DNA of 64,000 nucleotides from Bacilli bacterium (GCA_017938725.1 JAGBAW010000027.1:696-64695); one strand, 5' to 3'. Shown: positions 363 through 5,091, counted from the stretch's first letter. Notes: generated by a model not told the origin, from the letters alone. Made by a program: numbers and translations.

Positions 363-444
363 GTCGTTGCGATATTATTTATACATCAAATACAAATGAG
401 ATGTTTAACATTTGGTGCGCATAACCCTATTGGAAATCGTACCA
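363..444 (+). repeat. Copy A of an ~80 bp imperfect direct repeat (core catcaaatacaaat.agatgtttaaca.ttggtg.gcataaccctattggaaatcgtacca), followed by hairpin ctcgaact...agttcgag (458-488) and a T-run
   Basis: Near-identical copy at 4869-4946. Internal 8-bp stem (catcaaat / atttggtg). Sits in the 5' region of gene 618-1319. Confidence 0.8.
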
Positions 445-617
445 GATTGATACTAAACTCGAACTTTTAAATCTTATAAGAGTTCGAGTTTTAATGTTCT
501 TAAAAATATGATAAAATATTTATAGAAATTAAATTGAATTTTGTCAATTTTGAAAACACACTTGTGCATTGACAATATCAATGAACGTGTGAATTATTTT
601 ATAGGGAGTAGTTTAAT

Positions 618-1319
618 ATGAGCAATGACATAATAGTTAAGGATATTTCACAGATTGATTTAAAACATTCATTTTTTCATTATACCAGTAAGCAAAACCT
701 AGATACTATTTTAAAAAATGGACTTGAACCAAGAATTGGAGAAAACTCTTTATATGTTGAGAAAACACCTAAAGTGTTCTTTGTAGAGGGCGAAAAAGGT
801 ATTATAACTATTATGGATGTTTGGTTAAGATGGTTAACTTCAAAAAGTAATGTTAATAAATTTGTATATTGGCTTGGTACTTTTTATATGAGAACTCCAT
901 TCTGCGTAAAAGGTATTCCCAATAGTATTGTTAAGAAAAATTTAAATAATATTAAAAAACGCAATAAAGTATACAGTAAAATGAAGAAAATTCTTGATAA
1001 TAGCATTTTTCTTATTTTGGATTTAGAGGAAAATATTGATTTTGATTATAATGATATAGACGAAGTAAAAGATACATACTATGAATCTTTTTTAAAATTA
1101 TTATACCCTAGTAGCAGTAACATAAAGGACAAGAAAATGGAATACTGGAATATGCATACTTATTCAAATAAAATTATAAATCCTTTAAAAATTTCATTAC
1201 TAAAGAATAATGATAATTATATTGCAAATGACATATTAATCAATATAATAGAAAATAATATTGAATATATCAAGATTAATTGTGAATTTTTATATGAATA
1301 TTATATTTATATTAAATAA
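618..1319 (+). CDS. Putative ADP-ribosyltransferase-fold protein (DarT/DUF4433- or Tpt1-like); function unproven
   Basis: N-terminal motif FFHYTSKQNLDTILKNGLEP resembles the [Y/F]H-x-T-x3-NL-x2-IL-x2-GL signature of DarT/Tpt1-type ART folds. Monocistronic, with a strong terminator downstream. 233 aa, similar to DarT size. Confidence 0.45.
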   Translation: MSNDIIVKDISQIDLKHSFFHYTSKQNLDTILKNGLEPRIGENSLYVEKTPKVFFVEGEKGIITIMDVWLRWLTSKSNVNKFVYWLGTFYMRTPFCVKGIPNSIVKKNLNNIKKRNKVYSKMKKILDNSIFLILDLEENIDFDYNDIDEVKDTYYESFLKLLYPSSSNIKDKKMEYWNMHTYSNKIINPLKISLLKNNDNYIANDILINIIENNIEYIKINCEFLYEYYIYIK

Positions 1320-1365
1320 GTGAAAAGTTGTTGAACGTCCTTCTTTAGGGTACCAATATGTAATC

Positions 1366-1397
1366 AACCCTTATAATTTAAGGGTTTTTATTTTTTA
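1366..1397 (+). terminator. Rho-independent terminator
   Basis: aacccttat-aattt-aagggtt stem-loop followed by tttttatttttt. Confidence 0.8.
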
Positions 1398-1651
1398 GGT
1401 CTTAAAAGAGGTCTTATAAATTGTCTAGTAAATCAACTATTTCACCTTGAATTGTAGGAAATAAGTGCATAATTAAATCAATTACTTTACAGAGAAACAC
1501 TTACAAAAAATTTACTAGCACAATTTTTTGTCAATATGGTTTTTAAAAAGAATATTCCATTAGAAAATGACAAATACAGAGATAATTTATAAATTAAATA
1601 GATTGAGTACTCAAATTATGTTAAAATATAATTATATGAGGGGGAATTAAT

Positions 1652-2484
1652 TTGAATAAAATAATAAATAAAAATATGAAAAATAATACTACTTTTGAAG
1701 ATATAAAACATGTTGACTCAAATGATAATGAATATTGGAATGCTCGAGAATTACAAGCTGTTTTAGATTACAAAGAATGGAGAAAATTTGAAGGAGTTAT
1801 TAATAAAGCTAAAAATGCTTGTATTAATAGTAATATTGAGGTTTCAGAACATTTTGTCGGCATCGATAAAACGATAAAAATGCCTAAGGTGCAACAAAAA
1901 AAATTAACGATTATAAGTTAACAAGGTATGCTTGCTATCTTATTGCTCAAAATGGGGATTCAAGAAAAAATGTAATTGCTTTAGCACAAACATACTTTGC
2001 TATACAAACAAGAAGACAAGAAATAAATGAAAAAGAATATAGTATGTTAACTGAAGATGAAAAAAGATTCTATCAAAGAAACTTAACAAAAAAAGGAAAT
2101 TATTCGCTAAATCAAACAGCTAAAAATGCTGGAGTTAAGAATTATGATAAATTTCACAATTATGGATATAAAGGGTTGTACAATGGTGAAACGGCAGATG
2201 ATATTGCTAAAAGAAAGAAACTTAGATATAGAAAAGATATATTGGATAATATGGGTAGTGATGAATTAATTGCAAATCTATTTAGAATTTCACAAACAGA
2301 ACAAAAATCAAAGAAAGAAAATATTAAAAGCGAGAAAGAGGCAAATAAAGTTCATTATGAAGTAGGTAGTAAGATAAGAAAAACAATAAAAGAACTTGGT
2401 GGAACAATGCCTGAAGAATTACCCAATCCTAGAAAAAGTTTGAAGGAATTAGAAAAAGAAAGAAAAAAATTAGAAATTAGATAA
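1652..2484 (+). pseudogene. dinD: DNA-damage-inducible protein D (DinD/Bro-N-like), interrupted by a frameshift
   Basis: N part (1652-1921, ...YWNARELQAVLDYKEWRKFEGVINKAKNAC...) and C part (2044-2484) are the same protein in different frames. Frame 1 reads [42 protein letters not shown] across the gap. The frame switch lies at the A8 run 1896-1903; one extra A would restore a single ORF. Confidence 0.65.
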
Positions 2485-2557
2485 AAGAATAAAATTAAGT
2501 AAAATTATATTTTATATATTATTTATAATGGGTGTTTATTAAATTTAGGAGGTGTTT

Positions 2558-3037: not shown

Positions 3038-3094
3038 CAGATATATTTCCTCTTCTTTTGTTATTCTATAACTAGAAAAAGGAGAGGTTTTGTC

Positions 3095-4177
3095 ATGATA
3101 AATCACAAACATACTGAAGAAACTGAAATTAATTTTTCAAAAATTGAAGAAAGATTATTACAAATAAATGATCCTAATTTATTTACAAATTTTGAATTTG
3201 GTAGAAAAGCAAGATATTTATTTAGAGATGTTCCTACATTGATTGTAGCAACCGGAGGTTCTAAAGCTGCAGCCCATTATCTTAAAATGTTTTTAGAATC
3301 AATAGAAACTTTATGTGAGGTAATTGAGCCAAGAGATTATTTTCATAAAAGAAATATTAATCAATTTAAAAATTTAATTGTGCTTTCTAGTAGTGGCAAA
3401 TCCAATGGATTATTAGAAATACTTAGAAATTTTCATGGCAGTAGTTATTTAATTACCAGTGAATATGTAAGGCAGGAAGATGATTACACTCATACAGCAG
3501 GGTATTTTAAAAATGAATCAACACCACTGTTTGATATTCTTTATTGGAGTAATGGAAAATATAAAAATAGGGAAAAAAGTTTTATCTCAATTATTCCTAC
3601 TCTTGCTCCTATGTTAATGTTTTTAGAGCTAAGTATATTAAAAGAAACCAAAAAGGGAGAACTTTCTTCAGAAGATTTAATGAAGATAAATGGAAAATTG
3701 AAACAATTATTAGAAAAAAGTAAAAATCGAATTAATAATCTTAACTTTAATTTTAAGGATACAAATTTAATTCAAATTATGTCAGGCTATGATACAACTT
3801 GTTCATCTTCTATTTTAGAATCTAATATGATAGAAACAGGAACTTCTAGTGTTGTTGTCCACGATAAAGGCTCTTATTGTCATGGTAGAAGTAATCTATT
3901 ATTTCAAAATCCTGGAAGTCCTATTATTTATTTAGCACATCAAATGAAAGATTTAGATAATGAATTATTACCAGTATTAACACAAGAATATCCTAATATT
4001 TTCCTATTCCATACTTTAGATGAAGATGTAAGTATATTTTGGAAAGAATATTATTTAGCTATACAGATGTATTTTTTATCTAAAAAAATAGCAGAAGATA
4101 AAGGTATTGATCTTACAATGCCTGAATATAATCCGCAAGTAGTAAAAAAATTATATAGATATAAAGGAGAAATGTGA
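3095..4177 (+). CDS. Hypothetical Rossmann-like protein, SIS-like/SLOG-like N-terminal domain plus ~200 aa C-terminal region of unknown function
   Basis: TLIVATGGSKAAAHYLKMFLES...NLIVLSSSGKSNGLLEIL resembles SIS-domain motifs (G.G.S...A, ..iS.SG.t.e.l). 58 nt downstream of the WYL gene with an RBS, and its stop nearly overlaps the next gene, so likely co-transcribed. Confidence 0.5.
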   Translation: MINHKHTEETEINFSKIEERLLQINDPNLFTNFEFGRKARYLFRDVPTLIVATGGSKAAAHYLKMFLESIETLCEVIEPRDYFHKRNINQFKNLIVLSSSGKSNGLLEILRNFHGSSYLITSEYVRQEDDYTHTAGYFKNESTPLFDILYWSNGKYKNREKSFISIIPTLAPMLMFLELSILKETKKGELSSEDLMKINGKLKQLLEKSKNRINNLNFNFKDTNLIQIMSGYDTTCSSSILESNMIETGTSSVVVHDKGSYCHGRSNLLFQNPGSPIIYLAHQMKDLDNELLPVLTQEYPNIFLFHTLDEDVSIFWKEYYLAIQMYFLSKKIAEDKGIDLTMPEYNPQVVKKLYRYKGEM

Positions 4178-4178
4178 T

Positions 4179-4799
4179 ATGGGAAACTTAACTTATATAA
4201 CTGGAAATTATGGCAAATATGTTTCTGTAAAAGAAAAGTTTGAAAATTCTGGAATCACAATAGATTATTTTAAATGTGATTTAGAAGAACCAGATATTAA
4301 TGATATAGAATTTATATCAAAAGAAAAAGCTAGACAAGCATTTGAAATATTAGGAACACCTGTGTTTGTTGCTGATTCTGGTTTTTATATACAAGATTAT
4401 CCTGGCAATCCTGGATATCCTGGTGCTTTTGTTAAAAGAAGTGGCATTTCATCAAATATTATAGAGTTATTAGAAACAATGAACCAAACTCAGAATAGGA
4501 ATTGCTATTTTCTTGATTGCTTAACATTCTTTGATGGTAAAGATTATTTTCAATTCTTTGGAGTTAGCAAAGGTACACTTTCACACGAAATAAGAGGAGA
4601 GAAAAACAAAAAAGCTAAATCAAATTTATGGTTTGTGTTTATACCAGTGAATTGTAGTAAAACTTTAGCTGAAATGTCGGATGAAGAAAGAAATAATAGA
4701 CCTGATAATAGAACTAGTGCTACAGATAAATTTATAGAGTGGTATATAATTAATTATAAAAATTCAAAAAGATTGGTAAAAGATATGAACACTAACTAA
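4179..4799 (+). CDS. Ham1/RdgB (ITPase)-family non-canonical NTP pyrophosphatase-like protein
   Basis: ITGNYGKYV (Ham1 TGNxGK), FVADSGFYIQDYPGNPGYPGAFVKRS (ADDSGL..G.PG.YSAR-like) and a C-terminal KTLAEMSDEE resembling the Ham1 tail. Start ATG 4179 immediately after the upstream stop; RBS aaaggag. Confidence 0.6.
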   Translation: MGNLTYITGNYGKYVSVKEKFENSGITIDYFKCDLEEPDINDIEFISKEKARQAFEILGTPVFVADSGFYIQDYPGNPGYPGAFVKRSGISSNIIELLETMNQTQNRNCYFLDCLTFFDGKDYFQFFGVSKGTLSHEIRGEKNKKAKSNLWFVFIPVNCSKTLAEMSDEERNNRPDNRTSATDKFIEWYIINYKNSKRLVKDMNTN

Positions 4800-4868
4800 T
4801 GTATTATATTAGCAATTCCAAAAGATATTTTTATAAAAACATTTAAGATATTGCTTGATAAGAAAATT

Positions 4869-4946
4869 GTCGTTATAATATGTTCATCAAATACAAATTA
4901 GATGTTTAACAATTGGTGTGCATAACCCTATTGGAAATCGTACCAC
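4869..4946 (+). repeat. Copy B of the ~80 bp direct repeat, followed by hairpin gttcg-aacttttt-cgaac (4957-4974)
   Basis: About 90% identical to 363-444, including the flanking gtcgtt motif. Lies upstream of gene 5092-6156. Confidence 0.8.
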
Positions 4947-5091
4947 TTAAAAATCTGTTCGAACTTTTTCGAACTTTAGATAGGAGACTTGTCAAAAGTC
5001 TTTTTTTAGTCTGTTTTAAAGATATAATAGGTTGCAACTTTAATAAAAAAAATTTATAATATTTAATAGATAAAAATTAAGGTGATTATAA

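Follow-up and report, generated by a model that had tools for sequence, protein, structure and literature searches.

The ssrA islands of Dehalococcoides lie in tandem downstream of a single RNA gene and are bounded by direct repeats of the 3′ end of their target; their integration has been attributed to a large serine recombinase, and some islands without an integration module were read as cis-mobilizable or fixed (McMurdie et al. 2011, PMC3146451). Tycheposons and the islands detected by Islander use transfer RNA (tRNA) or transfer-messenger RNA (tmRNA) genes as targets and are flanked by one full and one partial copy of the target. In these islands successive integration displaces older elements outward, and fragmented integrases and scattered partial tRNAs are common (bioRxiv 10.1101/2020.12.28.424599; PMC4383910). 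Here we analysed a stretch of 64,000 nt from a Bacilli bacterium (GCA_017938725.1 JAGBAW010000027.1:696-64695; "the window"), in which a 4.5-kb interval is bracketed by two copies of a conserved 60-nt unit at positions 385-444 and 4886-4945, for which we use the working label RNA X. In our view these repeats are probably two complete RNA X units that act as a recombination site in the way of a tRNA or tmRNA 3′ end, and the interval between them represents the last two cassettes of a tandem array. Streptococci carry arrays of cis-mobilizable elements (CIMEs) beside integrative and conjugative or integrative and mobilizable elements, in which cassettes that are bounded by attachment (att) sites and encode neither recombination nor transfer functions themselves stand in tandem at one site. 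Our locus is like these arrays in its tandem cassettes with att-like boundaries; it is unlike them in that no intact partner is present in the scaffold region examined.

The locus differs from the other described systems in its repeats. Its anchor is a tRNA-Met gene, at the 3′ end of which the array starts as is expected for tRNA- or tmRNA-anchored arrays, and its repeats are either short motifs ending in (T/C)ACCA or the whole 60-nt unit with its promoter-like signal, whereas in Dehalococcoides the repeat simply duplicates 20 bp from the 3′ end of ssrA, and an integration module of six genes lies at attL in reverse orientation. Tycheposons and tRNA islands depend on tyrosine recombinases, and the repeats at their flanks can be recognised as partial tRNAs of ~40 nt; the repeat unit found here is not tRNA-like according to ARAGORN and Rfam, and the same cassettes occur behind several RNA genes. 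The short cassettes, promoterless or with a single gene and in one orientation only, recall those of integrons. However, there was no integron integrase among the scanned open reading frames (ORFs), and the boundaries are direct repeats ending in (T/C)ACCA and not attC palindromes.

The two copies form a direct repeat with a spacing of 4501 nt. Their core is sharply conserved, with 58 of 61 positions (95%) identical between 384-444 and 4885-4945, and a 26-mer and a 27-mer representing its two halves occur exactly twice each in the 64 kb, where shuffled sequences are expected to give 0. Over the 42 nt preceding the core, 24 positions (57%) are identical, compared with ~32% expected from composition alone. 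Both copies are followed by a TCGAAC-containing hairpin. That of copy A (455-491) is followed by a T-run and was terminator-like in the terminator scan and on folding, while that of copy B (4957-4974) is followed by a second, terminator-like hairpin at ~4982-5008. The block TCGAACTTTT begins 14 nt after the end of the core in copy A and 13 nt after it in copy B; as it is common to both after a divergent linker of 13-14 nt, similarity resumes beyond the linker. Thus the ~80-bp direct repeats with hairpins that an earlier note on this DNA had described are real. Their identity was overestimated there at about 90%, since we measured 68 of 82 positions (83%) for 363-444 against 4864-4945. The parts of the two copies are as follows.

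350-378 (+): promoter-like signal of copy A; TTGCAT at 350-355, 17-nt spacer, TATTAT at 373-378, 6 nt to 385
385-444 (+): RNA X copy A, 60 nt, ending in ...AATCGTACCA
445-495 (+): A-type trailer; linker GATTGATACTAAAC, TCGAAC terminator hairpin at 455-491, T-run; left end of the cassette with the gene for a protein of 233 amino acids (aa)
4851-4879 (+): promoter-like signal of copy B; TTGCTT at 4851-4856, 17-nt spacer, TATAAT at 4874-4879, 6 nt to 4886
4886-4945 (+): RNA X copy B, from the repeat comparison
4946-5008 (+): B-type trailer; CTTAAAAATCTG, followed by the hairpin GTTCGAACTTTTTCGAAC and the terminator AGACTTGTCAAAAGTCTTTTTTT

Two other readings of these sequences were considered and rejected. 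Small ORFs were discarded, as no ORF is conserved between copies A and B: a 24-codon ORF of copy A has no ATG in copy B, and a 7-codon ORF (MFNIWCA/MFNNWCA) has no ribosome-binding site and is missing from the related locus L027. The TTCGAAC motifs were not accepted as LexA (Cheo) boxes because their spacing differs from GAAC-N4-GTTC.

The window comes from a metagenome scaffold of 111.5 kb, and the fetched locus L004 extends it by ~9.4 kb leftward (window position = L004 position minus 9383). RNA X is present twice in the 64-kb window together with these ~9.4 kb, and the relatives that have it (contigs of uncultured gut Bacilli; fetched loci are numbered L004-L041) carry at most one copy per locus, so that the repeat is not the generic genome-wide leader that, according to the earlier note, would have spoken against an island. 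A diverged copy was located in L027 by way of the sequence upstream of homologues of the 233-aa gene. With a degenerate two-block pattern built from L027, nine genuine loci were found in public metagenomes (L030-L033 and L035-L039), and a further match in L034 was discarded as a chance match. With L027 this makes ten contigs, which hold five further sequence variants of RNA X. A hidden Markov model of the seven distinct variants (nhmmer) detected no additional copy in 479 kb of fetched DNA. Exact 20-26-mers had 0 matches in the viral collection, 0 in the JGI metagenomes and one in the species-representative genomes, a chance match inside a Sphingobacterium coding region; the degenerate two-block pattern found nothing in viral contigs, and blastn against plasmids and phages returned chance fragments only.

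RNA X could not be assigned to a known RNA. Rfam 15 gave no match on either copy, both at the gathering threshold and at E <= 10, and ARAGORN found zero tRNA or tmRNA genes in the 64-kb window; at the loci of the relatives, the only Rfam matches were to tRNA and tmRNA located elsewhere in those loci. The similarity of RNA X to tRNA 3′ halves was not significant (z < 2), which gives no indication that it is a 3′ fragment of the tmRNA or a tRNA of this clade. With no Rfam match, RNA X appears to be undescribed as an RNA family, and we regard it as a candidate new small RNA.

Upstream of RNA X, six otherwise divergent regions share ATTG, CG at positions -15/-14, and TAnnAT-N6-ATCAAATAC, while the spacers and the upstream genes vary among these six contexts. 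This promoter-like geometry (ATTG-N20-TAnnAT-N6, sigma-70-like) is the pattern expected for a working promoter, and RNA X is presumably transcribed. The unit has three conserved blocks, namely 5′-terminal AUCAAAUACAAAUGA, central GCA(A/U)AACCC(C/U)AU and 3′-terminal A(A/U)CG(C/U)ACCA, and the copies in the window end in CGTACCA, with the ...ACCA typical of tRNA. The predicted hairpin P2 around the middle block is paired in 95.7% of the cells, compared with 17-56% in slid controls, and its pairing is kept via compensatory and wobble changes. For the subtype represented by the window and L038, an alternative stem that uses the 3′ ACCA is predicted to be preferred; therefore, the structural evidence for RNA X is moderate. 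The boundary of the interval is more than the bare duplicated repeat of the earlier note, since RNA X is a complete conserved unit with a promoter-like signal that is also present in other genomes. Among L030, L031, L032, L033, L036 and L037, contigs that are otherwise 97-100% identical around RNA X, a T-run after position 20 of the unit varies from T6 to T9.

The comparison of closely related strains showed what happens at the 3′ end of RNA X. In one sister species (L030, L031, L032, L033, L036 and L037), the 380 nt upstream of RNA X are 97-100% identical, and the DNA past its ACCA falls into four unrelated classes, of which only a 20-nt or 54-nt piece of the trailer is similar. In a second sister species, the upstream sequences of L035 and L039 agree fully (100% identity), and their DNA downstream of RNA X has no similarity. 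Junction content is thus polymorphic between close strains in both species, and the comparison of single-copy relatives proposed in the earlier note turned out positive: the contigs carry one RNA X each, with different DNA exactly past the ACCA. This suggests that the RNA X 3′ end is a recombination junction. In L031, GTGGCCGAAAA is present in three tandem copies at ~500-545, after the trailer behind RNA X.

The DNA following RNA X was also found behind tRNA and tmRNA genes. The block 441-1360, consisting of the ACCA, linker, terminator, promoter region, 233-aa gene and ~40 nt beyond, is 82% identical to L019 7838-8742, and the start of this block in L019 is the exact 3′ ACCA of the tmRNA gene. 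The combination of A-type trailer and 233-aa gene is preceded by RNA X in the window and L027 and by a 3′ end resembling that of tRNA-Met in L026, a more distant version of the block stands behind tRNA-Glu in L028, and the A-type trailer alone follows RNA X in L035 and L037, with different genes next to it. A near-unchanged B-type trailer (ATCTGTTCGAACTTTTTCGAAC and terminator) is located behind the tRNA-Met gene of this genome (L004 7329-7390), and related B-type trailers in relatives stand behind tRNA-Thr (twice), tRNA-Arg and RNA X. The pattern ACCA-N10-16-TCGAAC has two matches in the window, where 0.13 are expected, and in this genome it is confined to four of the junctions listed below (J0, J1, J2 and J4). 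In addition, the 3′ end of RNA X tracks the nearby tRNA or tmRNA: it is TACCA where the anchor is tRNA-Met (this genome and L038), RNA X of L030 ends in GCACCA and the tRNA-Thr upstream of it in GGCACCA, and RNA X of L032 and L039 shares CACCA with the tmRNA end.

In this genome, the following series of junctions runs from tRNA-Met to the Mbeg1-like gene.

L004 7252-7328, ~2.1 kb left of window base 1: tRNA-Met, the anchor, with the same trailer and terminator as RNA X copy B
J0: tRNA-Met ending in ...CGCTACCA, then B-type trailer and a 241-aa gene
J1: ...GATAACTATCTCAATCGTACCA, then trailer, 90-aa and 213-aa genes, promoter-like signal and RNA X copy A
J2, 444/445: RNA X copy A, then A-type trailer, 233-aa gene and unit Y, ending in ...GGGTACCA
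1325-1355 (+): unit Y (AAGTTGTTGAACGTCCTTCTTTAGGGTACCA), with which the 233-aa cassette ends on the right
J3, 1355/1356: unit Y, then terminator, integrase stub, broken dinD, WYL-SIS-Ham1, promoter-like signal and RNA X copy B
1366-1396 (+): terminator-like hairpin and T-run, from the terminator scan; left end of the second cassette
1415-1471 (-): 3′ remnant of a tyrosine (phage-type) integrase gene; its 57 nt match the L009 integrase gene at the 3′ end with 84% identity
J4, 4945/4946: RNA X copy B, then B-type trailer and Mbeg1-like gene

Each of the five junctions ends in TACCA; AATCGTACCA is common to three of them, and four are followed by a TCGAAC trailer. The sequence to the left of J1 carries the 3′-terminal 10 nt of RNA X (AATCGTACCA), with the rest of the unit absent, and has a moderate similarity to the RNA X 3′ half (z 3.3). 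At J3, the homology to L019 stops and homology to the terminator and integrase 3′ end behind the tRNA-Ser gene of L009 starts. The hairpin at 1366-1396 resembles, with changes in the stem, the L009 hairpin between tRNA-Ser and a prophage integrase. Twelve codons of the integrase survive at 1435-1470 (-): in tblastn, MHLFPTIQGEIV matched residues 363-374 of the 381-aa integrase at 11 of 12 positions. The remainder of the gene is deleted; its L009 relative sits beside tRNA-Ser. Hence, contrary to the earlier note, a trace of integrase sequence does remain in the interval. A 31-nt motif, AAGTTGTTGAACGTCCTTCTTTAGGG(T/C/A)ACCA, forms the right cassette ends at window 1325-1355, L019 ~8712-8742 and L040 6751-6781, and unit Y is conserved (z 8.6-9.6) in L019 as well as in L040, where it closes the WYL-SIS-Ham1 block on the right. 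In L040, unit Y is followed by a B-type-like trailer.

From these comparisons, the 4.5-kb interval appears to be at least two decayed cassettes, the second of them composite, and to form the distal part of a ~7-kb tandem array anchored at tRNA-Met. The earlier proposal of a decayed island or cassette with duplicated boundary sequence is therefore supported as regards decayed mobile DNA bounded by recombination sites; given the internal junction at 1355 and the array starting from tRNA-Met, the 4.5 kb are not one islet. Base composition gave no distinct island signal. Farther left on the scaffold, L004 2743-3108 (-) encodes a 121-aa fragment of the N-terminal domain of a resolvase/serine recombinase ~4.1 kb upstream of tRNA-Met, and a 1-kb stretch at L004 3001-4000 has a GC content of 36% compared with ~25%; RNA family detection was negative there. 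Synteny of the left scaffold end with the smpB-ssrA region of L019 was unsupported, a Zn-ribbon motif being the only match.

Elements with a similar organisation and an intact recombinase gene are present in two relatives. In L032 and L039, the tmRNA gene is followed by a trailer, a 98-aa gene, the gene of a large serine recombinase of 569-586 aa (Resolvase and Recombinase domains, forward strand), a 106-108-aa gene, variable cargo and RNA X, which is located ~4.5 kb downstream of tmRNA. The tmRNA and RNA X junctions share a core of ~8-9 nt, CACCATTGA in L039 and CACCATTG in L032. L038 repeats this layout, with tRNA-Met and RNA X as its ends, but lacks the recombinase. Like the Dehalococcoides islands, the L032 and L039 elements stand directly behind tmRNA and encode a large serine recombinase. 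Their short core of ~8-9 nt, the forward orientation of the recombinase gene and the 98-aa and 106-108-aa genes differ from what defines DsiB-type ssrA genomic islands; the elements would work in the same manner as DsiB elements but are not the same family. In L030, two complete tRNA-Thr(CGT) genes (821-896 and 7159-7234), promoters included and with similar upstream regions, bracket 6.3 kb. This is the same architecture, with a whole gene at both ends, as that of the two RNA X copies in the window, and the L030 interval has the appearance of an island with a full copy of the target gene on either side. The T-loops of the two tRNA-Thr genes differ (TTCGAAT and TTCAAGT), and the interval holds RNA X as well as a gene homologous to the 90-aa gene.

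These comparisons suggest the following course of events. Circular integrative elements would join the chromosome at or just past the CCA end of an RNA gene, and each element would supply its own left-end trailer, a TCGAAC hairpin and terminator, as a new terminator for the target gene. The right end of each element would end in (T/C)ACCA, in some of them as part of a whole RNA X, and would recreate the site of ACCA plus trailer, on which the next element could land, leading to repeated integration at one place. Loss of recombinase genes would then leave head-to-tail, CIME-like cassettes bounded by ...ACCA and trailer. The same principle has been described for the tandem ssrA islands of Dehalococcoides (PMC3146451) and for tycheposons (bioRxiv 10.1101/2020.12.28.424599). 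The junctions were presumably made by site-specific recombinases, and part of the mosaic could stem from homologous exchange among trailers that resemble each other.

Several observations weigh against this scenario. An intact recombinase gene is neither inside nor adjoining the array in the window. The window species shows the same layout in 12 of 12 contigs encoding these proteins, with no empty site or alternative arrangement among them, and the relatives have one RNA X per locus, so that an element with RNA X at both ends was not observed elsewhere. The identity of the junctions with tRNA-Met (CGCTACCA) amounts to only 5-6 nt, and J3 has no TCGAAC trailer. The sequence shared at the junctions (TACCA and AATCGTACCA) is short; therefore, homologous or illegitimate recombination among similar trailers could yield a comparable mosaic. 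Finally, the window/L038 and L027/L030/L035 subtypes of RNA X do not have one common, clearly favoured fold.

Three other explanations of the repeats were weighed against recombination at RNA X. RNA X might be a small-RNA gene of the ordinary chromosomal kind, of which segmental duplication or gene conversion produced a second copy nearby, with unrelated genes in between and no mobile element. Both copies are indeed complete, with promoter-like signals and terminators, and the higher conservation of the core (95%) than of the flanks (57%), as well as the preserved P2 pairing (95.7% versus 17-56% in slid controls), would be expected of a constrained RNA. However, a recent duplication predicts uniform identity with sharp edges and not diverged promoters, and a local duplication leaves unexplained the abrupt change of DNA past the ACCA in two sister species and the presence of the DNA downstream of copy A behind tmRNA and tRNA-Met elsewhere. 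The 10-nt 3′ fragment at J1 and the integrase stub at J3 are not accounted for either, and we consider a local duplication unlikely. Much the same holds for the idea that the 60-nt stretch is a protein-binding arm of attP or attR, conserved at the DNA level and with incidental promoter-like hexamers, which we likewise judge improbable, if marginally less so. The unit always abuts the junction, secondary structure differs between the subtypes, and the first 17-19 nt have an inverted-repeat partner at mirror-image distance inside the other element end (L032, L039 and L038), all of which would fit such an arm. Against it stand the invariant spacing of ATTG, CG and TAnnAT-N6 in six divergent contexts, the compensatory and wobble changes in P2, and the T6-T9 tract of near-identical strains, which would disturb a fixed binding geometry. 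Moreover, att sites of large serine recombinases comprise ~50 bp in total, so that 60 nt to one side are out of reach.

The least probable alternative, which we consider hardly tenable, is that RNA X is a cis-acting leader (riboswitch or attenuator) of the 233-aa and Mbeg1-like genes. It would explain why a promoter-like signal, the 60 nt, a terminator hairpin and a gene follow each other in the same order and on the same strand at both copies. However, the downstream genes are unrelated and differ from variant to variant (233-aa family, Mbeg1, 101-aa, 125-aa and 271-aa genes; in L035 the gene is on the opposite strand), and the unit is missing at Mbeg1 homologues and at the majority of the homologues of the 233-aa gene. 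The terminators are non-homologous between the copies and belong to the exchangeable trailers that are also present behind tRNA genes, promoter-like sites are also located between the terminators and the genes, and Rfam detects no known leader even at E <= 10. Recombination at the RNA X 3′ end thus remains our preferred explanation of the locus.

If RNA X is transcribed outward from the right end of an element, it could have a function in the element itself. In L032, L039 and L038, the first 17-19 nt of RNA X recur in inverted orientation in the 5′ arm and apex of a terminator that precedes a 98-104-aa gene at the opposite end of the same element. These terminator hairpins (L039 4169-4250; L032 oriented 8113-8195; L038 oriented 4657-4750) contain GTATTTGAT, to which the 9 nt at the 5′ end of RNA X are reverse-complementary; in L032, complementarity extends to 17 nt. 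When hypothetical transcripts across the circle junction were folded, the pairing of the RNA X 5′ end with the terminator arm was the minimum-energy structure for L032 and the centroid for L039, and it did not appear for L038. With these mixed results, an antiterminator that depends on circularisation is conceivable but speculative. Mobile elements can have small RNA genes or leaders at their ends, and Tn916 and several insertion sequence (IS) elements have promoters there that become active across the joint after circularisation. The elements described here are like Tn916 and IS elements in the outward promoter predicted at one end and, in L032, L039 and L038, in an RNA 5′ end complementary to the terminator guarding the recombination genes; this likeness is a prediction only. 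According to the model, which we put forward with considerable doubt, RNA X would be a small RNA that senses the state of the element and switches on the recombinase as an antiterminator only in the circle, while leftover copies would serve as tRNA-independent landing pads. If this is true, the ends would be contiguous after excision and circularisation, and nascent RNA X could release the terminator of the recombinase operon. The RNA X copies in the window have no partner sequence for their 5′ end.

The genes between the two copies and next to them are the following.

618-1319 (+): 233-aa gene, carried by the first cassette; member of a conserved family, no Pfam match
1652-2484 (+): disrupted dinD-like gene; Bro-N part 1652-1921, C-terminal part 2044-2484
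2545-4799 (+): WYL-SIS-Ham1 three-gene block, transferable as far as its distribution indicates
2552-3037 (+): helix-turn-helix WYL regulator (Pfam, NCBIfam)
3095-4177 (+): SIS-like protein, 360 aa (Pfam, NCBIfam)
4179-4799 (+): Ham1/ITPase-like protein (Pfam, NCBIfam)
5092-6156 (+): Mbeg1-like (DUF2974) gene, first gene past the array (Pfam PF11187, E = 1e-61)

Contrary to the earlier note, the 233-aa protein is not an orphan, since it has 246 homologues with 60-86% identity. In relatives these adjoin tmRNA, tRNA-Glu, tRNA-Arg or RNA X; most of them are without RNA X. The assignment to the ADP-ribosyltransferase (ART) fold in the earlier note was not confirmed: the AlphaFold2 model had a predicted local distance difference test (pLDDT) score of 76, and the best PDB matches, KptA/Tpt1 and diphtheria toxin, were obtained only at E >= 2; therefore, an ART fold is neither confirmed nor excluded. 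The family has an invariant FFH-T motif near the N-terminus. In L030, L032 and L033, an HD-domain gene comes after a distant homologue with 38-39% identity; the same HD gene stands directly 5′ of a close homologue in L022 and L023.

The frameshifted dinD and the WYL operon reported between the copies are both there. NCBIfam PRK11525 (DinD) matched two separate ORFs with its positions 6-84 and 132-276, and ~45 model residues are missing between them; the gene is also a Pfam Bro-N match and a PADLOC candidate (PDC-S13). The interruption is near an A8 run at ~1897-1904. A weak A-rich tandem repeat (29 nt, 2.2 copies) at 2447-2507, over the end of the dinD-like ORF and the spacer, is probably low-complexity sequence. 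The DNA at 2545-4770 is 89% identical to L040 4450-6675 and L041 1287-3512, with sharp edges and in unrelated context (the neighbours there are ppx/purA and peptidase M16 genes), and judged from this the WYL-SIS-Ham1 genes behave as a self-contained transferable block. PADLOC matched only the WYL protein of this block. Homologues of the Mbeg1-like gene are preceded in relatives by tRNA-Ile and tRNA-Glu or by unrelated genes and never by RNA X, and in one relative two tRNA genes and a terminator stand upstream of it. A leader conserved upstream of Mbeg1-like genes was rejected, as it is missing at homologues of 62-72% identity.

Islander delimits islands by recognisable tRNA or tmRNA fragments (PMC4383910). 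As RNA X is absent from RNA libraries, arrays of this kind are invisible to tools that rely on such fragments. RNA X and the junctions between (T/C)ACCA and TCGAAC trailers offer a practical delimiter for small cargo cassettes in uncultured low-GC gut Bacilli; in this genome, the cargo delimited in this way comprises a WYL-regulated SIS/Ham1 operon, a DinD-like gene and a member of the widespread 233-aa family. Furthermore, the junctions point to possible att sites of serine recombinases that insert DNA directly past CCA ends.

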